From Myxococcota bacterium (GTDB taxonomy: Bacteria; Myxococcota_A; UBA9160; SZUA-336): a stretch of 64,000 nucleotides of DNA. Made by a program: the position numbers and the translations under genes. The notes below the pieces were generated by a model, which searched no databases, had not been told where the DNA came from, and saw only the letters and a program-made list of their open reading frames with translations. The stretch spans positions 8,598-72,597 of the forward strand of contig JBHHYV010000002.1 of the NCBI GenBank assembly GCA_046757685.1. Direction: 5' to 3'. Positions within the stretch are counted from its first letter, which is position 1; every line of letters starts with the position of its first letter. Positions 8,433 to 45,079 of the stretch are shown piece by piece.

Positions 8433-8729
8433 GTGCGCAGGGCGAGCCTGACCATCAAGAGCGGTGGCTTCTGCGGCAACCGCTTCGAGATCTCTCGACC
8501 CGAGGTACTGATCGGGCGCACCCCGACCTCGGACCTGACGCTCGTCGATGACGGCATCAGCCGGGAGCACGCGATGATCGTCTGGGAGGACGACCGCTTC
8601 TCGATCGAGGACCTGCAGAGCACGAACGGCACCCGCGTCAACGGCAAGCCCGTCCGCTCGGTCGAGCTGGCGGACGGAGACGAGATCCAGATCGGGAACA
8701 CCCTCTTCGTCCTCGAGATCGAGGGCTAG
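8433..8729 (+). CDS. Small FHA-domain protein
   Basis: GTG at 8433 preceded by GGGGGAGG (8419-8426). VRRASLTIKSGGFCGNRFEISRPEVLIGRTP...GTRVNGKPV...IGNTLFVLE is a classic FHA fold. An alternative in-frame ATG lies at 8325. Confidence 0.7.
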   Translation: MRRASLTIKSGGFCGNRFEISRPEVLIGRTPTSDLTLVDDGISREHAMIVWEDDRFSIEDLQSTNGTRVNGKPVRSVELADGDEIQIGNTLFVLEIEG

Positions 8730-25591: not shown

Positions 25592-25781
25592 GGGATCCCT
25601 CCGGGCACGCGAAGCGAGGGCCCCGCGGTGCACTGGACCCCTCACCCCTCGTCCGTGAGTGGTCTCGGGGCCCGGCCGGGTGACGAGCTGCACCGGAGCT
25701 GCCGACGCCGCTCGGGAAAGAAGCCGCCGCAGCGGCATGTTGACAGCGGAGCGCTCGCGTTCCTATCCTCCCGCCCCTTGA

Positions 25782-25859
<78 letters not shown>

Positions 25860-25926: not shown

Positions 25927-26373
25927 TCACTCCGGCGCTCCGGCGCCCGGCACGTCCCCCCGGGCGCGAGCCGCCGCCGCCAGGAGCGCCGCGCGCATCG
26001 GGGAGACGTCGACCAGGGGATGCCTGCGAGCCCGCGCGACCTCGCTCTCGGAGTAGGGCCGGAAGTCCGGTGGAAGCGGCTCATCCGCGAACTCCTCGAG
26101 CAGCCAGTTCAGGAGCGCCGCGAGCCGACGGTCGCTTATGGCCGACTGGGCCGATCCCGGCACGCGGACCAGGTAGGCGCGCCCACCCGGGGCCCACAGG
26201 AAGCGGCCGATGGAGTGGACCAGCGACGGCACCCGCCCCGACATTCCGCTGCCATCCGCCTGGTGGCAGCCCATGCAGTGAAGCGCGTAGTCGAGTCGCG
26301 GCGAGGCGACACCCGAGGCGGGGACGGCCAGGCTGAGCGCCGCGACCCCGAACCGCATGACGCGACGGCGCAT
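25927..26373 (-). CDS. Monoheme c-type cytochrome (single CxxCH), putative electron acceptor of the amine dehydrogenase
   Basis: ORF 25927..26373. Signal peptide, then CMGCH. The start lies 1 nt after the mauA-like stop. Confidence 0.7.
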   Translation of the reverse strand: MRRRVMRFGVAALSLAVPASGVASPRLDYALHCMGCHQADGSGMSGRVPSLVHSIGRFLWAPGGRAYLVRVPGSAQSAISDRRLAALLNWLLEEFADEPLPPDFRPYSESEVARARRHPLVDVSPMRAALLAAAARARGDVPGAGAPE

Positions 26374-26374
26374 G

Positions 26375-26944
26375 CTAGCGCTCGGTCGCGACCCCGAGGA
26401 CGCGGGCCGTCGAGCAGTGGTAGGCCTGGCTCGCGGCCCCGACGCACCAGTTGATGTCGTTGCTCTTCGGGGCCACGTAGACCGGTCGGTCTCCCTCGTT
26501 GCGATTGCACAGGCAGCGTCCGCAGTAGCCCTTGCCGCAGCAGTCGTTGTACGAGATCACGTAGTCCCTGCCGTCCGCGGGGTTGCGACAGGTCCCGATC
26601 CAGGTGATCGGCGACATCTCGGTGCCCGGCGGGCAGCGGTCTGCACTTCCCCCGCAGCAGCCGCACAGGAACCCATCGATCGCGCAGTGCCTCCAGTAGT
26701 CGCAGCTCGTGGGGTCGGCCTGCGCGCCTCGGAGCCCGGACTCGTCGGGCGCCGGCTCCCTCGCGGCCCCGTGGGATGCCCCCTCTGCAGCCGCTCCGCG
26801 CGCGACGGGCAGGAGGGGGATCGTCGCCCCTCCAAGCAGGAGCGTCGCGGCCCGACCCAGAAAGCCCCGGCGCGAGGTGCGCTTCGCCAGGCTGCGCGAG
26901 GCCCCCTCGACCCAGCGATCGACCCGGCCGCGAAGTGTCGTCAT
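26375..26944 (-). CDS. mauA: TTQ-dependent amine dehydrogenase light (beta) subunit, MauA/AauA family
   Basis: ORF 26375..26944. Twin-arginine signal RRGFLGRAATLLLGGA. Signature CDYWRHCAIDG (Paracoccus MauA has CDYWRHCSIDG). Both TTQ-forming Trp conserved (ITWIGTC, DINWCVG). 12 Cys in the mature part. Confidence 0.85.
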   Translation of the reverse strand: MTTLRGRVDRWVEGASRSLAKRTSRRGFLGRAATLLLGGATIPLLPVARGAAAEGASHGAAREPAPDESGLRGAQADPTSCDYWRHCAIDGFLCGCCGGSADRCPPGTEMSPITWIGTCRNPADGRDYVISYNDCCGKGYCGRCLCNRNEGDRPVYVAPKSNDINWCVGAASQAYHCSTARVLGVATER

Positions 26945-27579
26945 CTGGCACCTCCCATCCGCAGACCCTCTCCCGGCGCTCGATCCGCCTTCCCCTGCAG
27001 GTACTCCTGAAGCGAGGCGAAGCCGCTCGCGCGCGCCTCGAGCAGGCTCTCGAGGTGCTCCCGAGAGTTCACGAGTCCCTGGGCGCGCAGGACGCCCTCG
27101 TCATCGATCAAAACCGCGTGCGGAAGCCGCGCCACGGAGTAGGCCAGGCCGAGATCGGTCGAGACCAGGTAGGGGAACTCCTCGAGGCGCTCGCGGCGCA
27201 CGAGCGCCTCGTGCTCGTCGCGGGGACCGTCGCTGGCCAGCCACACGCGCAGCCCGGCACGCTCGGATCGCGCGAGCGATCGCAGCACGGGCAGCAGCGA
27301 CTCGCAGACCGGACAGCTCGGCGAGAGAAAGAAGAGCAGCAGGTCGCGACCCGAGGGATCGCGGCCCCCCACCCGGCGAGCGACGCCGCCGAGGTCCTCG
27401 ACCGTGACCGTCGGTGCAGGCTCACCGGCGACCGGAGCGGCCCGAAGCGTCAGTGCGCCCGCGGGCGCGACGCGCTCGTGCAGCACCCCGACCTGACGCA
27501 CCAGCGCGAGGACCACTCCCGCGAGCACGACGACGGCGCCCCAGAGCAGGAGATTGGAGACGAGGAGAGCCCCGCTCAC
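26941..27579 (-). CDS. mauD: Methylamine-utilisation protein MauD-like (TlpA-type membrane-anchored thioredoxin, CPVC)
   Basis: GTG 27579 within ORF 26941..28071. TM helix LLVSNLLLWGAVVVLAGVVLALV, then LLFFLSPSCPVCESLLP. GTGA overlap with mauE and ATGA overlap with mauA. Confidence 0.75.
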   Translation of the reverse strand: MSGALLVSNLLLWGAVVVLAGVVLALVRQVGVLHERVAPAGALTLRAAPVAGEPAPTVTVEDLGGVARRVGGRDPSGRDLLLFFLSPSCPVCESLLPVLRSLARSERAGLRVWLASDGPRDEHEALVRRERLEEFPYLVSTDLGLAYSVARLPHAVLIDDEGVLRAQGLVNSREHLESLLEARASGFASLQEYLQGKADRAPGEGLRMGGAR

Positions 27580-28115
27580 GCCGGCCTCGCGCTCCGGGCA
27601 AGGGACCCCGCGTTCGCGGCCAGGCCGTGGATCGCGCTCCAGCTCGCGACCAGGACACACGCCGACCCGAGAACGCTCAGCACGTCGAGCCAGACGAGCG
27701 GGCGCGGATCCTGGGGAAGCCGGCAGGCGAGCGCGGCGGCGATCAGCGCGGCGTTGCGCCAGAGCAGCCAGCCGGCGAGGGTCGCGCGGGCCTGCGGGCC
27801 CGCACAGCCGCAGTCGATGTCGCGCCGGCCCCGAGCGAGGTTGAGCGCGATCGCCGCGGAGTAGAGGGAGAGCAGGCCCGCGACTCCGAGCAGCGCGATG
27901 GGGCGTCCCGCGGGCCACAGCAGGCCCGCGCCCAGCCCGAGCTCGGCCAGCGCGACCAGGGGTGCGAAGGCTCGGCTGAGCAGCGTCGGGAGCAGCCGAT
28001 AGTCCGCGAAGATTCGCCGGAAGCGCGGCAGGTCTCGCAGCTTCTCGACTCCGCTCGCGATCCACACCCACGCGAGCGCGCCACAGACCGAGAGCTGGAC
28101 CACCGGGTCGATCAC
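27576..28115 (-). CDS. mauE: Methylamine-utilisation protein MauE-like integral membrane protein
   Basis: ORF 27576..28115 (GTG start). Four predicted TM helices of about 180 aa. Position between the mauB and mauD homologues. Confidence 0.75.
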   Translation of the reverse strand: MIDPVVQLSVCGALAWVWIASGVEKLRDLPRFRRIFADYRLLPTLLSRAFAPLVALAELGLGAGLLWPAGRPIALLGVAGLLSLYSAAIALNLARGRRDIDCGCAGPQARATLAGWLLWRNAALIAAALACRLPQDPRPLVWLDVLSVLGSACVLVASWSAIHGLAANAGSLARSARPA

Positions 28116-29338
28116 GGCACCCTCAGCTGTCCGCCGGCGATTCCGATCTCGGGCACGTCCCGAAGGAACTCCCCGCTACGCGCGTCGAGCACCGCGAGCG
28201 TGGCGGGAAAGCTCGACTCCAGGAGCAGCAGCGGCTCGGGATCCTGGGTCACCACGATTCGGTCCGCGCCCGGGTTGGGCAGGAGCGCGCCCAGCAGCCA
28301 GCGGAGCAGTCCGTCTCTCCACCCCTCTGAGTCCATCCCCATCGCCCGTCCCAGGAACAGAACGGTCGGGTTCGGAGCCGCGATCCGCAGCTGGCGCCGG
28401 CGCGTCGCGAGGTCGTAGCCCCAGACCTCGGTCCCGGCCTGCTTGTGCGTGTCGGGACCTCCGCGATGGACCAGCACGAAGAGGCGCCCGGAGGGGCCGT
28501 GCACGGCCAGGTGCTGGGCTCCCCCGATCCTCCAGCCCGCGGGCCCGCCGGCCGCCTCCATCAGCGACCAGGGAGCGTCGAAGCGAAGGGAGTCCCCGGA
28601 GACGTCGACCCCGTGGATCACCCCCTCGAACGACACGAAGAGCCAGCGGCTCCCCCAGCGCGCGGCCTTCTCGGTCACGGGATCCCCGATGGGGTCGAAG
28701 AAGGGCGCGGATCGTCGCTTCGAGACCACCTGTCCGTGGGCGTCGAGAGAGACCGTCAGGGCGGCGCCGTCGCCACACAGCATCAGGAAGCGCCGGGGAC
28801 CCGCGGCGTAGACCAGGCTGCAGCCTGGAGTCTCGACGCGTCCCACGAACCTGCGCTCGCGCACGTCGACGATGCTGAGCGAGGTGGCCGGAGTCAGGTT
28901 GAAGACCGCCACGAACCGGCCGTCGTCCGAGAGGGCCGCTGTCGCGACACCCGAGGCGTGCTCGGCTCGCTCGGCGGGGATCCCGATCTCGGCGAGTGGG
29001 GCGAGGGTCGTGGAGTCGTAGATCGTCACGACGTCCGTTCGGGTGCCGCGTGTCCCACGGGCGTAGTAGGTCTCGGGCAGGTAGATCTCGCCGCGCTCCG
29101 CCGAGAAGAGCGGCACGATGTTCCCGAGACCCGAGCTCAGCATTCCCAGGAAACGGGGGCGGTCGGGATCCACGAGTGCCGTGCGATGGAGGATCACGTC
29201 CTCCACCCAGACCCAGTGCGCTCCCGGGGTGCGCGGCAGCACCTCCACCCGCTGCGGCGAGAGCGAGCCGGGCTGCGCCAGCGCGCCGCTCGTCCATCCG
29301 CTCACGACGAGCGCGCACCCCACGAGCCATCGCCGCAT
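28112..29338 (-). CDS. mauB: TTQ-dependent amine dehydrogenase heavy (alpha) subunit, MauB/AauB family (7-bladed propeller)
   Basis: ORF 28112..29338. Signal peptide. Overall collinearity with MADH heavy chain (VFNLTPATS, CGDGAALTV, and GW/AYH blocks). Confidence 0.8.
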   Translation of the reverse strand: MRRWLVGCALVVSGWTSGALAQPGSLSPQRVEVLPRTPGAHWVWVEDVILHRTALVDPDRPRFLGMLSSGLGNIVPLFSAERGEIYLPETYYARGTRGTRTDVVTIYDSTTLAPLAEIGIPAERAEHASGVATAALSDDGRFVAVFNLTPATSLSIVDVRERRFVGRVETPGCSLVYAAGPRRFLMLCGDGAALTVSLDAHGQVVSKRRSAPFFDPIGDPVTEKAARWGSRWLFVSFEGVIHGVDVSGDSLRFDAPWSLMEAAGGPAGWRIGGAQHLAVHGPSGRLFVLVHRGGPDTHKQAGTEVWGYDLATRRRQLRIAAPNPTVLFLGRAMGMDSEGWRDGLLRWLLGALLPNPGADRIVVTQDPEPLLLLESSFPATLAVLDARSGEFLRDVPEIGIAGGQLRVP

Positions 29339-29440
29339 GACGCCTTCCGTCCCCCCCAGGCGACGCGATCATAGCCCGAGCGGGGGCCCGCTCGCAGGCG
29401 GGGCGCGAGCGGGGAGATGGGAGAGAGGCGACCTCCGGGA

Positions 29441-31798
29441 TCAGCGGAGCTGGCGGCGGACGGCCTCGATCAGCTCGGCGCAGGAGAAGGGCTTGCGGAG
29501 ATGGTCGTCATAGCCCGCCTCGAGGCAGCGCTCGCGCACGCCGGCCAGCGTCTCGGCCGTGAGCGCGACGAGGGGACCCGCGTAGCCGCTCTCGCGCAGC
29601 TTCCGGGCCGCGGTCCAGCCGTCCATCGAGGGCATCTTCAGGTCCATCAGCAGCAGGTCCCAGGGACGCCCGGAGGGCGTACCGGAGCGCGCCCGCTCGA
29701 GCCCCTCCGCGCCGTCCGAGGCGACGCCGACCTCGAGCCCCGCCTTCTCGAGAAAGGTCTGGATGAGCTTCTGGCACAGCGGATCGTCCTCGACGACCAG
29801 CACGCGGCCGCCGAGGCGACCGAGCGTGGCCGGCTGGCACCGGTTCGCGTGCAGCGAGCGCGCGAGATCCTCCGGACTCTCGAGCCGCTCCACCCCCTCG
29901 AGCGAGCCCGTGGCAACCGTGACCCGGAAGATGCTGCCGCGGCCCGGCACGCTCGAGACCCTGATGCCGCCTCCCAGCAGATCCGCGAGCAGGACCGAGA
30001 TGGCGAGCCCCAGCCCCTCGCCCCCGGAGTCCGACCTGGAGGCCTGTGCGAGGTCGACGGGACGGAAGAGCCGATCGAGATGGTCGGGCTCGATTCCGAT
30101 CCCGGTGTCGGAGACCTCGACCCGCAGCAGCGACGGTCGGCCCTTCTCTTCCTCGAGCTGCGCAGAGACCGTCACGCCCCCACGTCGAGTGAACTTGATG
30201 GCGTTGTCGATCAGGTTCACCAGGATCTGGCGCAGGCGCAGCGGATCGGACTCGATCCTCGCGGGGAGAGGGCCGTGGAGCCGGGCCTCGAGGGCCAGGC
30301 CCTTCCGCTCGGCGATCCCGCACATCACCTCGACGACCTCCCCGATCACTGCGCAGGGCGAGAAGCACTTTCGCTCGATCGTCAGTCGATTGGACTCGAG
30401 GCTCGAGAGGTCGATCACGTTGTCGACCAGCGCGATCAGCTGGCGGGTGCTCCGGCGGATGGTCCGGGCGTGCTCGAGCCGCTCCGCGGAGCCCGCGGCG
30501 GGATCGAGGATCAGCTCGGCATGGCCCATGGCCACGCTCAGGGGGGCTCGGATCTCGTGGCTCAGGTGGGCGATGAAGCGCTGCCTGGCGAGATCCGCCG
30601 CGCGCGCCTCCTCGACGGCTCTCTTCAGCTCTCCGGCCATCGCGTTGAAGGACTCTCCGAGGTCGCGAATCTCGTCCCGCCCGCGTAGGGTCACGCGCGC
30701 CTCCAGCTGGCCCCGCTCTACCTGGCCCATGGCGTCGCGCAGGTTCCCGATCCGGCGCGAGACGTTGCGAAACAGGCCGAGCCCCAGGAGCACGGCGATC
30801 CCCAAGGCCGCTCCCGCCCCGACGATGAGCTCGCGCGTGACGCGCTCGATCGGAGCGAACGCCCGCTCGACCGGGCTCTGCCGCAGAACCAGCCATCCCA
30901 GGCCGCCCATCCGGGCCCACGCCGTGAACACCGGGACCCGTCCGTCCCCTCCCCCGCCGCAGACGAAGCCCCCCGAGGAGGCCGACGCCGCGATTCGATC
31001 CAGACAGCCGGGCAGCGTGACCTTGATGGGCGCTCCAGATCCGTCCGGCGGATCATCGATGACCCCGCCGCTGCGCCCGGCGAGGCGGAGCGTCCACCCC
31101 GACTCCGCCGCACCCTCGCGGTCGGCGAGCGTGCGGCGGGCGAACCCGATGTCGAGGACCGCCTTGAGGACCCCCAGGAAGCGGCCCTGGTCGTCGTCGA
31201 CCCGGATGCACAGCTCGGTCGACAGCGACCGGGCGCTCTCGTCCCAGCTGATGTCGCCGATGAAGATCCCCTGCTCACGAGCGCGCTGCCACCAACGTTC
31301 GTCGTCCTGGCGAAAGTCTGTCGTCATTCCCGTCTGCCCGACGTTGATCCCGAAGCGGTTGGTCACGAAGACCTCGCCGTAGACGCGGTAGCCCTCCTGT
31401 CGCTCGAGGGCGTCCGTCTCAGCGCGCAGGAGCTTCGAGAGGGGAGCCTCGGAGATTCGGCGAGCCAGGGATGGCGGATGCAGGGGGTCGGCGCTTCGCC
31501 ACTCGCGATCCGCCGCGTCGATCCAGGATCGAAGCTGCGGGCGGCGCTCGGTCTCCTCGTTCGAGGCGACGAGGGCCTTCTGGAACTCCGGAGAGCGCGC
31601 GAGCAGCCGCCAACCCTGCTCCCGATCGTGCAGGACCCGTTCGATCTCGGCGATCGCCTCGCTCGCGACCCGCTCGGCGTTGGCCTCGATCGAGGCCCGC
31701 AGAGCCCGGCGCGCCAGGTGGATGGAGTAGCCGGCGACCCCCGCGACCAGCAGAGCGGTCAGCGAGATGGCGAGTGCCAGCTTGTGTCCGATCGTCAC
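29441..31798 (-). CDS. Hybrid sensor histidine kinase (periplasmic sensor domain-HAMP-HisKA-HATPase-REC)
   Basis: ORF 29441..31798. Two TM segments flank a periplasmic domain of about 280 aa. H-box HLSHEIRAPLS. N/G-boxes LIDNAIKFT, SDTGIGI, GGEGLGLAI. C-terminal receiver (VLVVEDDP...DLLLMDLKMP). Confidence 0.85.
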   Translation of the reverse strand: MTIGHKLALAISLTALLVAGVAGYSIHLARRALRASIEANAERVASEAIAEIERVLHDREQGWRLLARSPEFQKALVASNEETERRPQLRSWIDAADREWRSADPLHPPSLARRISEAPLSKLLRAETDALERQEGYRVYGEVFVTNRFGINVGQTGMTTDFRQDDERWWQRAREQGIFIGDISWDESARSLSTELCIRVDDDQGRFLGVLKAVLDIGFARRTLADREGAAESGWTLRLAGRSGGVIDDPPDGSGAPIKVTLPGCLDRIAASASSGGFVCGGGGDGRVPVFTAWARMGGLGWLVLRQSPVERAFAPIERVTRELIVGAGAALGIAVLLGLGLFRNVSRRIGNLRDAMGQVERGQLEARVTLRGRDEIRDLGESFNAMAGELKRAVEEARAADLARQRFIAHLSHEIRAPLSVAMGHAELILDPAAGSAERLEHARTIRRSTRQLIALVDNVIDLSSLESNRLTIERKCFSPCAVIGEVVEVMCGIAERKGLALEARLHGPLPARIESDPLRLRQILVNLIDNAIKFTRRGGVTVSAQLEEEKGRPSLLRVEVSDTGIGIEPDHLDRLFRPVDLAQASRSDSGGEGLGLAISVLLADLLGGGIRVSSVPGRGSIFRVTVATGSLEGVERLESPEDLARSLHANRCQPATLGRLGGRVLVVEDDPLCQKLIQTFLEKAGLEVGVASDGAEGLERARSGTPSGRPWDLLLMDLKMPSMDGWTAARKLRESGYAGPLVALTAETLAGVRERCLEAGYDDHLRKPFSCAELIEAVRRQLR

Positions 31799-31966: not shown

Positions 31967-32419
31967 TCAGTCGCGAGCGGGATCGCGTGGATCGAGGCGC
32001 ATGATGAAGGGCCCTCCCATCCATCCGCGGAAGGGCGCGAGCAGCCGATCGGGGAGTCCGTACTTGGCGCGCAGAGTCGAGACGACGCGCGCCACCTGCG
32101 CCGGGTCGGTCACATCGGTGGCCCGCATCGGATACCACTGCCCTGCGATCTGCACCGTGATGTCGCGGTTCCGGACGATGTTCGCCCTCCAGCGCGTGCT
32201 GCCGGTCCGGATGTAGCCGTTCCCATCGACGACGGCGAGCCAGATCGTGGTCTCGCGAAGCGGGCCGTCCGGATCGTGCGTCCGCAGCTGGATGGTCTGC
32301 TGATCCGCCACGCGACCCCACTCGCCGATGCCGGCCGGGGCCGCCCCGATCGAGAGCGCGGCGAGCCCCGCGAGCCAGCACCCGAGAGCCGCAGCCCGTC
32401 CTGTCCGTTCGTGGACCAT
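31967..32419 (-). CDS. Secreted DUF385/nitroreductase-fold-like small protein
   Basis: ORF 31967..32419. Signal peptide. Similarity to the deazaflavin-dependent nitroreductase/DUF385 split-barrel (TTIWLAVVDGNGYIRTGS...VTDPAQVARVVSTLRAKY). Family assignment tentative. Confidence 0.45.
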   Translation of the reverse strand: MVHERTGRAAALGCWLAGLAALSIGAAPAGIGEWGRVADQQTIQLRTHDPDGPLRETTIWLAVVDGNGYIRTGSTRWRANIVRNRDITVQIAGQWYPMRATDVTDPAQVARVVSTLRAKYGLPDRLLAPFRGWMGGPFIMRLDPRDPARD

Positions 32420-32476: not shown

Positions 32477-32947
32477 CTAGCGAGAGCGCGAGGCGAGCTG
32501 GTGAGCCACGATGGTCCCCGCGACGATCAGCGCCAACGCCCCCGGTGGAACCAGCAGGATCGCGGGATTCGGATCTCCGCCGAAGACGACGACCCCCCCG
32601 AGCAGGAACCCGGCAGGCATCAGGACCGTCGCAGCGATCAGGGCGCCGGAGGCCAAGCTCCGCGCGGCGGCCGAGAAGCGGCTGCCCTCGGCCCGGAGCG
32701 TCGCCGCGAAGGCGAGGTTGACCAGCCCGAGCAGGACCCCGTGGGCGTGCGCGAGGGTCCAGAGCTCCCTGCGCGTGGCGTTCGCGAGATCGAGGTACCA
32801 GCCGACCTTGAACCCGTTCAGGGTCTCGAGGGTCAGACCGAGCCCGGCGAAGAGGGACAGCGCGACCCAGCCCACCAGCAGGTGGCGCCCGACGACGCCG
32901 TCCGGCCTCGCTCCCGTCTGCGTGCGCCCCGGAGCCCGAGCCGCCAT
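32477..32947 (-). CDS. Hypothetical integral membrane protein (4 TM)
   Basis: ORF 32477..32947. The ATG overlaps the stop of the upstream octaheme cytochrome gene (ATGA). Confidence 0.55.
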   Translation of the reverse strand: MAARAPGRTQTGARPDGVVGRHLLVGWVALSLFAGLGLTLETLNGFKVGWYLDLANATRRELWTLAHAHGVLLGLVNLAFAATLRAEGSRFSAAARSLASGALIAATVLMPAGFLLGGVVVFGGDPNPAILLVPPGALALIVAGTIVAHQLASRSR

Positions 32948-34794
32948 CAGTCCGGGTACCAGATGGGCCGCTCATCGCGATCGCGGACCAGCTGCGCGGC
33001 CGCGGCGTGATCGAAGCGGCCCTCCGGATCGATCAGCAGCCGGGATCCCACGCTGTGGCGCTTGGGATCGGCGGACCAGCGCCGCAGCACCGCCCTCGCC
33101 GCATCCTCACGCGCCGGGACCGGTCCCGCGAAGTCGTAGCGCAGGCCCGCGTAGCCGGGAATCTGACGCAGCGAGTGAAAGGCCACCGACCGATCGACGT
33201 CGTAGGGGTCGACGAGTCCCTGCGCCAGGATCGGCGGCATCCAGTCCCGACCCGAGGCCTGCTGTGCCGGCCGCCAGCCCATCGCCCAGGTCGCGATGCC
33301 GCGCTGGCCGGCCTCGCCGGAGAGCGCCCAGACGATGGACGCCGCCACCTGGCGATCGCGCTCGGCGAGCGGCGGCGGAGCCGTCCCGTACCACTGCTCG
33401 AGCCAGCGGGCCGTCCAGCTCAAGCTCCGGTCGAGATGGCACAGGTTGCACGCGTTGGGGCGACCGAGATCCACGCTCTCCTGCACCGTCGGGCTCGAGA
33501 CGCGATGGCTGCGCGTGGCCTTGTGGAGCCCGAACGAGGTGAAGGGCATGTGGCAGTGGGTGCAGGCCGATCCCGGCGATGGGGCCGGATGATGGGAGTG
33601 CCGGGCGCGCGCGCGCGCATCCGCGAAGCGAGCGTGGCAGGCCAGACAGGCGCGTCCCGTGCGCGCCCCGGGCCGGAGCTGATCGTCGGCCCAGACGTCG
33701 AGGGGCCGCGCATCGTCGGACCCGCGGTGCATGCGGTGGCAGGTCGTGCACGTGAACTCGCCGCTCGCAAAGCAGGGGGATGCGAGCACGTCCTGGTACT
33801 CCCGTCCACCGACCCGCAGCGCGCCATCCGGCCAGAAGCGCGTGACCTCGGCAAGCTGGTTGTGATCGAGCAGACGCACGCGATCGAAGAAGCTCGGGTC
33901 ACCCGGCCGATAGCTGGAGCCGCGCTCGAGCCAGCGCCGCTTGTCCTCGGGTCCCAGGAAGGTCCAGGGGCTGTGACACTGGGCACAGACCTGCATCTGC
34001 GCCTCGGGATCGAGTCGCCCCGGATTGACGATCGTGGGATCCGGGCGGTCCCGCACCTCGAGCCCGATGCGGCGCAAGGGGTTGCGATTGACCCGGACAT
34101 GCTCGCCGCCGGGACCGTGGCAGGCCTCGCATGCGATCCCGAACTCGGCCGCTCGCGTATCCACCCGATCGCCCATCGCCCGGGGCTGCCCCCGCACGGC
34201 GTGACAGCCCACACAGATGGTGTTCCACTCGCTTCCGCGCCCGTGCACCCGGGTTCCCGGGGGCACCAGCACGACCGAGTCGAAGGGCACCCAGCGCCGC
34301 TCGGCGACCTGCCAGGCGTGCGCGAAGAGGTCGATGCGTCGGCTCTCGCCCGACTCGAGCCAGTACGCCTGGAAGTGGTGCGAGCCGGTCGTCATCACCA
34401 CCCGTCGCTCGACGGCGGGAGTGTCCGCGGAGGACGACGTGGACCTTCGGACGACCCAGTACTGGTCTCCCCTTCGCTCGACGCGCACGCGCTCCCCTGC
34501 GTATGCGAGCTCTCGCCCATCGAAGCGGGCGAGGACCGAGTCCGGGGAGGCCTCCTGGGTCATGCGGCGGTGATAGGAGGCGCGCCAGGTCGCGTACTCG
34601 CGCGGATGACACGCCTGGCAGGCGCTCGAAGAGACGTAGCCATCGGAGTGGACCTCGAGGGGACGCGTCCGGACCTCGGGCTCGGAGAGGCGCAGGGGCC
34701 AGCGGTAACCCAGCGCGAGCAGGCTGCCGGTCGCCAGCAGGGCCGCGACCAGCACGAGGATCCCGACCCGGCGAGGTGTGGGATCAGCTGCCAC
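32947..34794 (-). CDS. Membrane-anchored octaheme c-type cytochrome
   Basis: ORF 32947..34794. N-terminal TM anchor. Eight CxxCH motifs: CQACH, CVGCH, CEACH, CAQCH, CTTCH, CLACH, CTHCH, CNLCH. Confidence 0.8.
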   Translation of the reverse strand: MAADPTPRRVGILVLVAALLATGSLLALGYRWPLRLSEPEVRTRPLEVHSDGYVSSSACQACHPREYATWRASYHRRMTQEASPDSVLARFDGRELAYAGERVRVERRGDQYWVVRRSTSSSADTPAVERRVVMTTGSHHFQAYWLESGESRRIDLFAHAWQVAERRWVPFDSVVLVPPGTRVHGRGSEWNTICVGCHAVRGQPRAMGDRVDTRAAEFGIACEACHGPGGEHVRVNRNPLRRIGLEVRDRPDPTIVNPGRLDPEAQMQVCAQCHSPWTFLGPEDKRRWLERGSSYRPGDPSFFDRVRLLDHNQLAEVTRFWPDGALRVGGREYQDVLASPCFASGEFTCTTCHRMHRGSDDARPLDVWADDQLRPGARTGRACLACHARFADARARARHSHHPAPSPGSACTHCHMPFTSFGLHKATRSHRVSSPTVQESVDLGRPNACNLCHLDRSLSWTARWLEQWYGTAPPPLAERDRQVAASIVWALSGEAGQRGIATWAMGWRPAQQASGRDWMPPILAQGLVDPYDVDRSVAFHSLRQIPGYAGLRYDFAGPVPAREDAARAVLRRWSADPKRHSVGSRLLIDPEGRFDHAAAAQLVRDRDERPIWYPD

Positions 34795-34929: not shown

Positions 34930-36243
34930 ATGCACCCGGCGCTTCCCTCGCAGCCGATCCCGAGCCAGGTCGAGCACCTGACTCCGGAGTGGGTGACCTC
35001 GGCATTGCGAGCCGGCGGCTTCCTGGACACGGCGCGCGTCGCACGGATCGAGCGCGAGATCCTGGGACAGGGGGAGGGCTTCATCGGCACCATCGTGCGC
35101 CTTCGCATCACTCTCGACCGGCCGGAGCGGGCCGCACCGAAGACCCTGATCGCGAAGCTCCCGATCTCGATCGCCCAGAACCGGACACTGGGCGAGATGG
35201 GCGGGACCTACGAGCGCGAGATTCGCTTCTACCAGGCCCTCGCGCGTGACGTCGGGATCCGCACGCCCCGCTGCTACTACGCGGCGATGGATCCCAACCC
35301 GGCGGAGGGACACGAGCGGCAGATCGTGAGCTTCCTGGAGCGCCTTCCGCTCTGGCTGTGTCGACTGCTGATGAGCTTCTTCTTCTGGATCTCGCGCCGC
35401 AGCCCGCGGCGCTACATCCTGCTTCTCGAGGACCTGGCCCCTGCGAGGGTCGGAAACCAGGTCGAGGGCTGCTCAGCGCGCGAGGCGGAGTGTGCCGTGC
35501 GCGCCCTCGCCCGGATGCATGCCCGCCAGTGGAACAACCCCGCCCTCGAAGACCTGCACTGGGTGGCCCCGATCGACACGCTATCGCGCTTCTTCCACGC
35601 CATGTTCCTGCGCGCGCACGGGCGCTTCCTGGAGCAGTTCGGGCCCGTCTTCTCGCCCACACTTCCGGATCTCGCGGCCTGGCTCGAGCGGCACGCCCTC
35701 TCCCTGGTGCGCTCCCTGGCATCCCTGCCGCGAACGCTCCTGCACGGCGACTATCGCCTCGACAACCTCTTCTTTCACGAGGGCCCGGAGGGGCCCGAGG
35801 TGATCGCCCTGGACTGGCAGGTCGTCGCGCTCGGTCCGGGAGAGCTCGACCTGGCCTACTTCATCACCGGCAACGTCCGCGTGCACGAGGCTGCAGGCTG
35901 TGAGCGGGACCTGGTCCGCGCCTACTACGAGGAGCTCCGCACCCACGGCGTCGAGCGCCACGACTGGGCCGCGTGCGAGCGCGCGTACGCACTCTCGAAG
36001 GTCTTCGTGCTCTATCGAATGATGTCGGGACTCGATCTACTCGACTTCTACGACGCGCGAGGCCAGGCGCTGGTCGAGGGCTGGATCGCTCGCCTCTCGA
36101 AGCTGCTGCCTCACGACTGGGCGGCGCTCCTGGCGGACGCCCCCGGCCGACCCGATGCCCTCTCCACGCGCGGACGGGTCTCGCAGGGCTCCGCATGCCG
36201 CCCTCCGCTCTCGAGCGGGAGCGACGGCGGCGCGGGACGCTAG
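34930..36243 (+). CDS. Phosphotransferase enzyme family protein (APH/CHK kinase-like)
   Basis: ATG 34930. Brenner and catalytic loop LHGDYRLDN; D-L-D motif (ELDLAYF). Confidence 0.75.
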   Translation: MHPALPSQPIPSQVEHLTPEWVTSALRAGGFLDTARVARIEREILGQGEGFIGTIVRLRITLDRPERAAPKTLIAKLPISIAQNRTLGEMGGTYEREIRFYQALARDVGIRTPRCYYAAMDPNPAEGHERQIVSFLERLPLWLCRLLMSFFFWISRRSPRRYILLLEDLAPARVGNQVEGCSAREAECAVRALARMHARQWNNPALEDLHWVAPIDTLSRFFHAMFLRAHGRFLEQFGPVFSPTLPDLAAWLERHALSLVRSLASLPRTLLHGDYRLDNLFFHEGPEGPEVIALDWQVVALGPGELDLAYFITGNVRVHEAAGCERDLVRAYYEELRTHGVERHDWAACERAYALSKVFVLYRMMSGLDLLDFYDARGQALVEGWIARLSKLLPHDWAALLADAPGRPDALSTRGRVSQGSACRPPLSSGSDGGAGR

Positions 36244-41678: not shown

Positions 41679-44600
41679 TCAGTGGAGATCCTGGCGCTGG
41701 CGCCGCGCGTCGAGTCGAGCGAGCAGCTGTGTGGCGAGGCGCCCGATCCGGGACAGCGCACCCCCCTTCGCCACCTCGAGGGCGAGCGCGGCCTGGCGGG
41801 CTGCGGAGGCGGAGTCCCCCGCCCGCTCGGAGGCGACGCCGGCATCGACCCAGGCTGCCGCAGAGATCCTCCGCAGCCCCTGGGCCTGGGCGCGCTCCGC
41901 GCAGCGCTCGAAGCGCGGGGGAGCGGCCATCGGATCGGCGCCCGGCTCCGCGGCGGCGGCGCGCGCCTCGGCCAGCTCCGTCAGGGTCTCGCGCAGCTGC
42001 CCCGCCGCCCACTCTCGCGCCACCTCGACCGCCCGGGCCGCCTCGGCCGGGCGACCCACCGCGAGCAGCGCCTCGACGACCAGGTCCGCCTCGAAGGCGA
42101 TGTCGCTCCCGCGGGAGATCTCTTCGCACAGCCCGTCGAGGTGCCGGGTGTCCGCCGGAAGGCCCCGCGCAGCGTCCGCGAGCAACGCGATGGCGTTCGC
42201 CGTGCGCCGCGTCGGAAGCAGGTCGTACTCGCGAGCGATCGCCAGGGCCTGCTCCGCCAGCACAGCCGCGCGCTCGGGATCGTCCCCCTCGAGGGCGAGC
42301 CGCGCCAGGCGCGCCAGCGACGTGGCCTGGACCGAGCGGTTCGGTGCCTGCTCGGCGCAGCGAAGGGTCTCGCGGGTCTCGCTCTCCGCGCTCGCGAGCT
42401 CTCCCGCGAGCGAGAGCGCGCGATCGCGATAGGCCCTCGCCGTGACGTAGAGATCGGTCTGGGCATCGCGCTCGCCCAGCGCCGCGAGACCGTCGACCAC
42501 CTCGCCGAGCAGGCGCCGGGCCTCGTCGATGCGGGAGTCGAGCAGGTACGCCCATCCCAGCTGCCGGCCCATCCGCAGAGCCGGGAGTGCGGAGTCCTCC
42601 GCCTGCGCAATCTGGCTCGCTCTCTCGATCAGACCCAGTCCCTCGCTGAAGCTCCCCGGCAGGTTGCACAGCTCCGTGCCCCGTTGCGCCAGGAGCTCCG
42701 CCAGCGAGACCGGGTCCCGGAGCTCCTCGGCCAGCGCGACGCCGCGCTCGAAGGCATCGTCGCTCTCGGGTCCCGAGCCCCGGGTGAGGGCGCGCGCCCT
42801 CGAGACGCCGATCGCCGCCTCGAGCGCGGCGCGGCGGTCCGCCTCGGACTGGACTCCGCCCGCGAGCAGCCACTCCCGCGCGAGCGTCCAGGCCTGGGTC
42901 CGAAAGCGAAAGGCGGTGGTGAACGCCGGGATCGCCTCGGCCTCGAGCGCGGCCACGAGCAACGCGCGAACCGCGCGCGGACGGTCGTCGCTGCGCGACC
43001 AGTGGTGGGCCAGCAGCGCGGCGCGCTCGGGTGTCTTGCCCGCCGGGTCCCCCTCCACGAAGCGCGCCAGCTGCGCATGCAAGCGCCGGCGCTCGCGAAG
43101 CAGCAGGCTCTCGTAGGCCACCTCCTGGGTCAGGCTCTCGCCGAAGCGATAGACCCCCTCCCCCAGCTCGCGGCGCGGATAGACGATTCCCCGGCCCTCG
43201 AGCAGCGAGAGCTGCTGCGACACGTCGACCCCGCTGCCCATGAGAAGATGCTCGAGCTCCTGGGTGCGAAACTGTCGGCCCGCCACGGCCGCCGTCTGCG
43301 CCAGGCGCTTCGCCGTCGCCGGCAGCCGGTCGAGGCGCGCCCCGAGGAGCTCGTGGACGCTGCTCGGGATGGGGATCTCGTCGACCGGCCGCGCGGTGCG
43401 CATCCGCCCGTCCTCCACGACCAGGTCACCGGCCTCCAGGACCGCCCGGGTCAGCTCTTCGGCGTAGAAGGGATTGCCCTCCGCCTTGGCGACGAGGCGG
43501 GCCCGAAGCTCGGCCGGGACCTCGGCTCCCGCAACCGCGTCGACGATCTCTCCGATGTGGGCGTCCGCGAGCGCACCCAGGTTCAGCTGCGTGAACGCCG
43601 AGCGGGTCTCCCACCGCGGCCGGTAGTCGGGACGGTGCGACACGACCAGGAGGATCCGCCCCCCCTCGATCCTCGCGGCCGCCATCTCCAGGTCGTGGCG
43701 GGAGTCCTCATCGATCCAGTGCAGGTCCTCGAGCACCAGGACCACGGGTCCGCGGTCGGCCAGCCCGGTGATCAGGCGCTCGACCGCGCGAAAGCTCGCC
43801 CGCCGCAGCTCGTCTCTCGAGCCCTCCGGCGGCTCCCCGCGATCGATCGAGAGCATGCGGCACAGGTAGGGGGCGATCTCGGTGCCATCCGGATCCCACT
43901 CCGAGACGCCGTCCCGGACGCGTTGCTCGCGAGCCTCGGCGGAGTCGTCGGGCTGGATTCCGAAGTGATTCTCGAGCATCCGGATCCACACGTAGTCCGG
44001 AACCGAGCTCGCGAGCGAGGAGCAGCGCGCCTCCAGGATCGTCGCTCCGCGGGACGCGGTCCGTCGCTTGAACTCGTGGACCAGGCGGGACTTGCCGCTT
44101 CCCGCCTCACCGACGATGGCCACCATCTGTGTCAGGCCGGCACCGACGCGGGTGAAGCTGTCCTCGAGCTGGCCCAGGTACGCCTCGCGACCGATGAAGG
44201 GAGTGAGCGCCTGACCGGAGGCGGCATCCGGCTCCCTCTGGCCCAGCACCCGATAGGCCCGCACCCGCTCGCTGCGGCCCTTGAGCCGGACCGGCCCTAC
44301 GAGCTCGAGCGAGAAGCGCCCGCCGAGCAGCCGCTGCGTGCTCTCGCTGATCCAGATCGTCCCCGGGTCCGCCAGCGACTCCAGGCGCGAGGCGAGATTC
44401 GTCGTGTCTCCGATCGCGGTGTAGTCCGTCTTGGCCTCGCTCCCGACGGTGCCCACGACGGCGAGGCCGGTATGGATGCCGATCCGCGCCTCGAGCGGAT
44501 GCTCCCCCGTCGCGCCCGCCAGGAGGCGACGCTGGATCGCGAGCGCCGCCGACACCGCCCGCGCAGGCGAGTCCTCGCGCGCGATCGGTGCGCCGAAGAG

Positions 44601-44996
44601 CGCCATGACCCCGTCCCCCGTCAGCTGGTTGACGACCCCCCCGGCCGCTTCGATCTCGCTCATCACGCTCTCGAGGTAGCGCCCGAGCAGCTCGCGGTAC
44701 TCCTCGGGGTCGAGGGGCTCCGCGATCCCGGTCGAGTTCGCGAGATCGCAGAAGAGGACCGTGACCTGCTTGCGCTCCCCCGCCGCAGGCTCGCCCGGAG
44801 AGCGCCGCGCGGCCCGCGCCTGCGGCCCGGCCGGGCCCGCGTCCGTCGAAGCCCGCGACCCGCACTCCGGACAGAACCGGAAGTGCGCTTCGAGAGCCGC
44901 GCCGCACTGTGCGCAGCGGCGGCCCACCGGCTCGCCACAGCTGGGGCAGAAGCGCATGCTCCGAAGCAGGGGGGCGCCGCAGCTCGGGCAGTCCAT
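41679..44996 (-). CDS. Multidomain signalling protein: double zinc ribbon, class III adenylate/guanylate cyclase, AAA/STAND NTPase, TPR array
   Basis: ORF 41679..45005. ATG at 44996 (MDCPSCGAPLL...CPSCGEP...CAQCGA...CPECGS). Cyclase motifs FCDLANSTG and GDGVMALFG. P-loop GEAGSGKS. Long TPR/helical C-terminus. Confidence 0.85.
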   Translation of the reverse strand: MDCPSCGAPLLRSMRFCPSCGEPVGRRCAQCGAALEAHFRFCPECGSRASTDAGPAGPQARAARRSPGEPAAGERKQVTVLFCDLANSTGIAEPLDPEEYRELLGRYLESVMSEIEAAGGVVNQLTGDGVMALFGAPIAREDSPARAVSAALAIQRRLLAGATGEHPLEARIGIHTGLAVVGTVGSEAKTDYTAIGDTTNLASRLESLADPGTIWISESTQRLLGGRFSLELVGPVRLKGRSERVRAYRVLGQREPDAASGQALTPFIGREAYLGQLEDSFTRVGAGLTQMVAIVGEAGSGKSRLVHEFKRRTASRGATILEARCSSLASSVPDYVWIRMLENHFGIQPDDSAEAREQRVRDGVSEWDPDGTEIAPYLCRMLSIDRGEPPEGSRDELRRASFRAVERLITGLADRGPVVLVLEDLHWIDEDSRHDLEMAAARIEGGRILLVVSHRPDYRPRWETRSAFTQLNLGALADAHIGEIVDAVAGAEVPAELRARLVAKAEGNPFYAEELTRAVLEAGDLVVEDGRMRTARPVDEIPIPSSVHELLGARLDRLPATAKRLAQTAAVAGRQFRTQELEHLLMGSGVDVSQQLSLLEGRGIVYPRRELGEGVYRFGESLTQEVAYESLLLRERRRLHAQLARFVEGDPAGKTPERAALLAHHWSRSDDRPRAVRALLVAALEAEAIPAFTTAFRFRTQAWTLAREWLLAGGVQSEADRRAALEAAIGVSRARALTRGSGPESDDAFERGVALAEELRDPVSLAELLAQRGTELCNLPGSFSEGLGLIERASQIAQAEDSALPALRMGRQLGWAYLLDSRIDEARRLLGEVVDGLAALGERDAQTDLYVTARAYRDRALSLAGELASAESETRETLRCAEQAPNRSVQATSLARLARLALEGDDPERAAVLAEQALAIAREYDLLPTRRTANAIALLADAARGLPADTRHLDGLCEEISRGSDIAFEADLVVEALLAVGRPAEAARAVEVAREWAAGQLRETLTELAEARAAAAEPGADPMAAPPRFERCAERAQAQGLRRISAAAWVDAGVASERAGDSASAARQAALALEVAKGGALSRIGRLATQLLARLDARRQRQDLH

Positions 44997-45079
44997 CGAG
45001 CCCAAAGACTCGCCACGCGAGGGCTCGCGTCAAGCTCGGCGCGGCTCACACAGGCCCCGTCGCGAAGAGGCGACGGCCC

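Follow-up and report, generated by a model that had tools for sequence, protein, structure and literature searches.

The 64-kb window analysed here (positions 8,598 to 72,597 of contig JBHHYV010000002.1, GenBank assembly GCA_046757685.1, from a Myxococcota bacterium) probably carries an intact operon for a quinoprotein amine dehydrogenase of the aau type, aauB-aauE-aauD-aauA-orf2, whose product would use tryptophan tryptophylquinone (TTQ) as cofactor. The operon is a further member of an established enzyme group and its layout is already known from Alcaligenes faecalis. The lack of mauF, mauG, mauJ, mauM/N and an amicyanin gene, to which the original prediction had drawn attention for mauG and mauF, is, judging from the loci compared, the normal state of the aau branch and not a gap in this genome.

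Gene content and affiliation of the operon

The five genes span positions 25927-29338 (-) of the window. The first codes for an AauB-like heavy (alpha) subunit of 408 amino acids with an N-terminal signal peptide (28112..29338 (-); PF06433, E 3e-33). It is followed by aauE/mauE, coding for a 179-long membrane protein with a CGC motif (27576..28115 (-); PF07291, E 4e-27; tblastn with Paracoccus MauE, E 9e-15), and by aauD/mauD, whose 212-long product is a periplasmic thioredoxin-like protein with a CPVC motif (26941..27579 (-)). The latter scores 202 bits on the NCBIfam MauD equivalog model, exceeding the cut-off of 188.6, and shares 44% identity with Paracoccus MauD over its full length. The AauA-like light (beta) subunit of 189 amino acids (26375..26944 (-); PF02975, E 6e-52) and a 148-long monohaem cytochrome c with a Sec signal peptide and a CMGCH motif, assigned by homology to A. 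faecalis orf-2 (25927..26373 (-)), complete the unit. The cytochrome gene falls outside the interval 26375-29338 covered by the original prediction. The junctions B/E, E/D, D/A and A/orf-2, read from the sequence, are GTGA, GTGA, ATGA and TAG-C-ATG: the GTG start of mauE overlaps the stop codon of the heavy-chain gene, that of mauD the stop of mauE, the ATG of the light-subunit gene overlaps the mauD stop, and the cytochrome ATG lies one base past the mauA stop. The five genes are translationally coupled.

The light subunit has a predicted Tat leader (RRGFLGRAA, residues 25-33, with the arginine pair at 25-26) and the segment CDYWRHCAIDG at residues 81-91. The candidate TTQ residues are W115 in ITWIGTC and W166 in DINWCVG. 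When aligned by MAFFT to Paracoccus MauA and a further two light chains, both fall into invariant columns with the tryptophans of the Paracoccus ASW and IIW segments, and HMMER aligns them also with those of the solved light chains of methylamine dehydrogenase (MADH) and of aromatic amine dehydrogenase (AADH). Twelve cysteines and the active-site residues D90 and D134 are invariant in the same MAFFT alignment. The Paracoccus counterparts are presumably beta-Trp57 and beta-Trp108 for the cofactor and Asp32 and Asp76 for the active site. The light subunit keeps every residue needed for TTQ and catalysis. Because all family-defining sequence features are present, a TTQ enzyme is expected from the operon. 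The original prediction stands on these points: the Tat signal and the signature are found in the translation, both tryptophans are retained, the misalignment with the TTQ positions that it had named as a possible refutation is not seen against Paracoccus MauA, and the expectation of a TTQ-dependent enzyme is borne out by the full set of family features.

The absence of mauG could itself suggest that the operon is a decaying mau remnant, inactive after the loss of that gene. Nothing more speaks for such decay, and we regard it as extremely improbable: none of the five open reading frames (ORFs) is disrupted and their junctions are coupled, no catalytic or cofactor residue has been lost, and 76 other species share the layout, as does A. 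faecalis, from which the enzyme was crystallised with TTQ (PDB 2agl and others).

Sequence comparisons place the operon in the aromatic amine dehydrogenase (aau) branch and not in the mau branch. Among solved structures the heavy chain matches A. faecalis AADH (2hxc) with E 3e-45 and MADH with E 6e-30, and on the NCBIfam MADH equivalog TIGR02658 it obtains 113 bits, not reaching the cut-off of 454. For the mature light chain the scores are 158.7 bits with AADH (2agl_D) and 129.9 bits with MADH (3l4m_C), and the light chain's score on the MADH small-subunit model TIGR02659 (182.7) falls just short of the cut-off of 196.85. Neighbour-joining of 81 light-chain cores set three MADH sequences apart from all others; the window light chain fell together with A. 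faecalis AauA and with those of two plasmid-borne aau clusters, of Novosphingobium and Cupriavidus and of the 80 environmental genomes described below. Enzymes of the aau type prefer aromatic primary amines such as phenylethylamine, tyramine and tryptamine. Given a light-chain identity of about 50-58% to A. faecalis, the predicted substrate of the present enzyme need not be an aromatic amine.

MauG and multihaem proteins in the window and in related loci

In MADH, TTQ is completed by MauG (PMC6405878, PMC11951088). MauG is a protein of about 350-390 amino acids with two CxxCH motifs and the PF03150 domain, and no such ORF is found in the window, where the sole conceptual parallel is the possibly five-coordinate c-type haem of the small cytochrome. 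The search for CxxCH covered all stop-to-stop segments of the window in six frames. The motif occurs in three of them only: the ORF of an octahaem cytochrome (eight motifs), the small cytochrome after mauA (one) and a segment of non-coding appearance (one). The octahaem protein excepted, no ORF of the window has two motifs. Pfam scans of about 50 ORFs detected no PF03150 domain, and neither Paracoccus MauF, MauG, MauJ, MauM, MauN and amicyanin nor Pseudomonas azurin gave a tblastn match below E 0.1 in the window. The empty tblastn searches agree with the earlier statement that mauG and mauF are missing from the window; the motif scan and Pfam likewise agree that it holds no di-haem peroxidase-like ORF, and the scan that the octahaem cytochrome is the sole multihaem protein nearby. 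The accompanying premise that mauG adjoins mauA is true only of the mau branch (Paracoccus, Methylobacterium, Indioceanicola), the aau branch being as a rule without a linked MauG.

This rule emerges from the loci of the 80 closest light-chain relatives (56-69% identity, one genome per species) among at least 589. Most are metagenome-assembled genomes of Myxococcota ("delta proteobacterium" in older labels), Binatia and Gemmatimonadota, with many Gammaproteobacteria. The nearest relatives by operon are metagenome genomes of Myxococcota, Binatia and Gemmatimonadota, the best light-chain match reaching 69% identity. The light chain in its exact form was found on a single record, a 4.4-kb Logan contig (SRR29324609). 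Two of the 80 loci end within 170 bases of mauA, leaving 78 informative ones, and the five-gene module is found in 76 of these. All-against-all clustering of the ORFs of the 80 loci showed that the five operon genes alone are conserved (71-80 loci each); the next families are TonB-dependent receptors (27 loci), TetR regulators (19) and aldehyde dehydrogenases (17). A MauG-family gene lies within 10 kb of the operon in one locus convincingly (L014) and in another weakly (L069). Neither a small MauG profile nor a tally of ORFs holding at least two CxxCH motifs revealed further linked MauG genes in the 80 loci, and no MauG-family match was found within 10 kb of the A. faecalis aau locus (L088).

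Plasmid records give the same picture. Among those of the aau type, the cytochrome is present in all 15 listed and a linked MauG in none; the hosts are Novosphingobium, Burkholderia, Cupriavidus, Pseudomonas aeruginosa, Chimaeribacter, Sphaerotilus, Haematobacter and Paracoccus sp. SMMA_5. In the mau-type plasmid records examined (Paracoccus, Methylobacterium, Indioceanicola), mauF and mauG are linked to the cluster and the orf-2 cytochrome is missing. A search for an E. coli genome carrying an aau-type cluster found no match.

If a missing linked mauG is normal for the branch, TTQ would form there independently of linked MauG. The missing mauG of this window should not be taken for a new way of making TTQ that only this genome has; the aau branch still poses the small, long-standing question of how TTQ is synthesised without linked MauG. 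A partial literature search found no account of TTQ maturation in this branch, the reviews found covering MADH and MauG only.

The maturase that we rate likeliest, tentatively, is an unlinked di-haem enzyme of the MauG/MbnH family, a solution compatible with an intact aau-type operon. The locus with the closest light chain (L014, 69% identity) lacks the orf-2 cytochrome and has a gene for a 367-long di-haem protein (L014:632-1735 (+)) 6 kb upstream of its operon (L014:7370-10480). This protein keeps W93, Q103, P107 and E113 of MauG and a tyrosine at the position of Y294. However, its 249 bits on the TTQ_mauG model are short of the 444-bit cut-off and its gene is cut off from the operon by opposite-strand genes. 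Burkholderia replicons with an aau-type cluster also hold CCP/MauG-family genes more than 1 Mb away. Hothi et al. in 2005 reportedly obtained a TTQ-bearing enzyme from aauBEDA and orf-2 in Paracoccus denitrificans, a host with MauG, which we count in favour of an unlinked maturase. MauG-family genes are common in bacteria and are reported to be more widespread than MauA (bioRxiv 10.64898/2026.03.05.709764). Against this solution, the CCP-family matches within 10 kb (one strong and one weak in 80 loci) are about what chance would give and thus provide no linkage signal. The five-gene module occurs both on plasmids and across widely separated phyla without any other conserved gene, which argues for its self-sufficiency.

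The octahaem cytochrome had been put forward as a candidate for maturation or electron transfer. It is a 615-long protein with an N-terminal membrane anchor and eight CxxCH motifs (32947-34794 (-)), giving weak matches to NrfA/c554-type proteins; its closest solved relative is the uncharacterised protein 6i5b. The gene is on the operon strand, 3.6 kb upstream. A 721-long homologue with a TPR-like tail (L048:11779-13944 (-), 25% identity over 450 amino acids, E 2e-26) is encoded 1.3 kb from the cluster of Photobacterium rosenbergii, and multihaem ORFs likewise lie near the cluster of L005. Service to the dehydrogenase, whether as maturase or as electron outlet, is nevertheless very unlikely. 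A homologue near the cluster occurs in L048 only, 1 of the 80 loci, where it is on the strand opposite to the cluster, and none is present in A. faecalis or in the plasmid examples. Three other genes separate the octahaem gene from aauB, and it is translationally coupled instead to the gene of a 156-long membrane protein that matches no family (32477-32947 (-)). The octahaem protein also has no similarity to MauG. Its lack of co-conservation with the module led us to reject it as a member of the system; the small cytochrome encoded beyond the interval first considered is the haem protein that does accompany the module.

Possible roles of the orf-2 cytochrome in electron transfer and TTQ maturation

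In 79 of 84 loci mauA is immediately followed by a gene for a homologue of the cytochrome, and the orf-2 cytochrome is present in about 97% of the related clusters (76/78). No Pfam or NCBIfam family matches it above threshold, and orf-2-type homologues (e.g., in L002, L085 and L086) carry differing annotations (hypothetical protein, cytochrome c or c-552). Its AlphaFold model (pLDDT 88) gives best Foldseek hits to 1qyz and 1c52 (TM-score 0.56-0.63). Thermus thermophilus cytochrome c552 (1c52), a class I His/Met carrier, is also the best sequence match (phmmer E 7e-9). The two proteins have in common the CxxCH motif, a GGR-Y-L segment, an L-N helix and an EEV...R segment. The loop of c552 with the axial Met69 (residues 52-73) is matched by only four residues in the window cytochrome, about 18 residues being missing there. 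This loop is replaced by Val-Pro-Gly, a tripeptide without variation in 79 of 79 homologues. No column of conserved Met, His, Lys or Cys was found outside CxxCH among these 79 sequences, and 74 of them have Arg or Gln three residues ahead of the site once held by Met. The haem would hence be without a protein-derived sixth ligand, as inferred from this alignment. In the plasmid collection, cytochromes of the orf-2 type are encoded only beside aau-type light chains. The exceptions there are distant Met-bearing c552 genes of Thermus and Deinococcus and one weak, unplaced match in Novosphingobium sp. RL4.

The set of electron carriers encoded after mauA varies between loci. The orf-2-type cytochrome stands alone in 57 loci, is preceded by a Met-bearing c552-type cytochrome in 10 and is followed by a c4-type dihaem cytochrome in 9. 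In a metagenome genome of Halieaceae a single ORF with three CxxCH motifs (L061:10339-11391 (+)) combines an orf-2 domain (58-192) with a c4 domain (195-349); the corresponding genes are separate but adjacent in eight other loci. No cupredoxin gene linked to the operon was found, whether in the window or in the fetched loci, among them the 10 kb on either side of A. faecalis aauA; an azurin gene could lie unlinked. The orf-2 cytochrome would most simply be the dedicated electron acceptor of the enzyme, because it is the constant member of this variable set and is once fused to a classical carrier. MADH of bacterium W3A1, another TTQ enzyme, also has a cytochrome c552 as the recipient of its electrons. 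Large plasmids of clinical and environmental isolates bear aau-type modules in which a Met-bearing cytochrome gene precedes a Met-less one: Pseudomonas aeruginosa (L085), Chimaeribacter arupi (L086) and Paracoccus sp. SMMA_5 (L092). A multicopper oxidase gene follows the module of Chimaeribacter, and genes for a tyrosinase and more cytochromes are near that of Paracoccus sp. SMMA_5.

Family knowledge suggests how the enzyme would be made and work. The MauE/MauD pair would oxidatively fold the light subunit, which has a Tat signal and six disulfides; this subunit would assemble with the heavy subunit in the periplasm. MauE homologues can replace DsbB in E. coli via their CXC motif (bioRxiv 10.64898/2026.03.05.709764). 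The assembled enzyme would oxidise a primary amine to the aldehyde and ammonia. For the electron route, the comparative data are consistent with a transfer from reduced TTQ to the orf-2 cytochrome and on to the respiratory chain, the cytochrome replacing the amicyanin of MADH; in other genomes the route would be extended by His/Met c552-type or c4-type cytochromes.

Several points weigh against a functional dehydrogenase with this cytochrome as its acceptor. Expression of the operon and formation of TTQ are both predictions. Genes for an aldehyde dehydrogenase, a transporter or any other catabolic function were not found by Pfam scans beside the operon in the window, so that physiological substrate and role are unsupported. 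The apparent lack of a conserved sixth ligand would be unusual for a pure electron carrier and is typical of ligand-binding or catalytic haems. The genome behind L061 was assembled from a metagenome, and the fusion seen there could be an artefact of assembly or of a frameshift. Finally, purified A. faecalis AADH uses azurin as acceptor in vitro, so that the cytochrome may not be the first acceptor.

The comparative data narrow the maturase candidates within the module to one protein, the orf-2 cytochrome with its apparently open haem site. Acting as a one-haem substitute for MauG, this haem would use peroxide or oxygen to oxidise both tryptophans. We consider such a maturase unlikely, and slightly more doubtful still the broader proposal that the Met-loop-less cytochrome is the missing maturase of the whole branch, a single-haem oxidant that may also accept electrons. 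In its favour, the cytochrome is the sole accessory protein conserved with the enzyme besides MauE and MauD, and in the plasmid records it is restricted to aau-type light chains and mutually exclusive with linked MauG. Two informative loci have no orf-2 cytochrome: L014 has the nearby MauG-like gene, but L054 has no haem gene at all within 10 kb. The deleted Met loop, the invariant VPG and the lack of a conserved alternative ligand fit a reactive haem, and the Arg or Gln near the former Met site would be of types known from the distal pockets of peroxidases. Some clusters, in addition, carry separate conventional His/Met cytochromes. On the other side, this role is a prediction from sequence features, and the conserved residues other than VPG are common to Thermus c552 and structural in appearance. 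The repeated pairing, and the one fusion, with ordinary electron-transfer cytochromes favour electron transfer. MauG, furthermore, needs two haems for its bis-Fe(IV) state (PMC6405878), so a single haem would require another mechanism.

Self-processing, or the action of a further factor, comes after an unlinked MauG and the orf-2 cytochrome in our list of possible sources of TTQ. In L054, MauM/N-like genes had raised the suspicion of a mauG just beyond the locus; the upstream ORF codes for an Lrp/AsnC-type regulator and no MauG fragment was found.

Surroundings of the operon and relation to known clusters

The 102-nucleotide intergenic region 5' of the heavy-chain gene (29339..29440 (-)) is the putative promoter region of the operon. 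No sigma-70-like site was found in it on the operon strand. Just past the stop codon of the upstream kinase gene it has a GC-rich 8-bp inverted repeat, CCGCTCGC ... GCGAGCGG, which could be a terminator-like hairpin or the site of a regulator. The adjacent gene on the same strand codes for a hybrid sensor histidine kinase with HAMP, HisKA, HATPase and receiver domains identified by Pfam (29441..31798 (-)); that it regulates the operon is possible but unproven. Related loci have TetR, AraC or LysR regulators instead, and few have a kinase nearby. The downstream end of the operon is marked by a convergent tRNA-Met gene detected with ARAGORN (25782..25858 (+)), which starts about 70 bases past the cytochrome stop. 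The sole sigma-70-like promoter match of the region (25740-25769) is located ahead of this tRNA gene.

The host is an uncultured bacterium whose DNA has 72% G+C, and no foreign-island signal was seen in base composition. Housekeeping genes identified by Pfam among the ORFs of the window code for MutL, MiaA, Der, QueA, Tgt, EF-P, ScpA/B, GlnD and MutS. A DUF2255/F420-dependent-oxidoreductase-like protein (31967-32419 (-)) is encoded between the kinase gene and the octahaem unit, and the gene of an ecdysteroid-kinase-like/APH-family phosphotransferase (34930-36243 (+)) is divergent from the octahaem gene. Further away, a 1116-long protein (41682-45029 (-)) combines an N-terminal double zinc ribbon with an adenylate/guanylate cyclase domain and an AAA_16 ATPase domain.

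The closest known system is the aau cluster of A. faecalis (orf-1, aauB, aauE, aauD, aauA, orf-2, orf-3, orf-4, hemE), which has the core order B-E-D-A-orf2 in common with the window. It was reportedly described by Chistoserdov in 2001, with mauF, G, L, M and N absent and orf-2 as a monohaem cytochrome; the absence of mauG in A. faecalis is said to have been noted already there and by Hothi et al. in 2005. In locus L088 the order is aldehyde dehydrogenase, orf-1, aauB, aauE, aauD, aauA, orf-2 coding for 166 amino acids, an AraC-type gene, orf-4 and hemE. A. faecalis orf-2 (L088:10660-11160) codes for a protein with 44% identity to the window cytochrome, both lacking the Met loop. The heavy chains share 31% identity and the light chains 49% (58.5% over the mature core). 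Both clusters are without mauF, G, J, M and N and without a linked cupredoxin gene. The porin-like orf-1, the AraC-type orf-3, orf-4 and the adjacent aldehyde dehydrogenase gene of A. faecalis have no counterpart in the window, whose flanks, the hybrid histidine kinase and tRNA-Met genes, are unlike those of A. faecalis.

The mau clusters of Paracoccus denitrificans, Methylobacterium and Indioceanicola are organised as mauF-B-E-D-A-(C)-J-G-(L)-M-N. Unlike them, the window has no mauF, amicyanin gene, mauJ, mauG or mauM/N, a cytochrome c gene follows mauA and the heavy chain is only 27% identical. The core order B-E-D-A is nevertheless common to both, as are the protein superfamily, the TTQ tryptophans, the disulfide cysteines, the active-site aspartates and the MauE/MauD pair.

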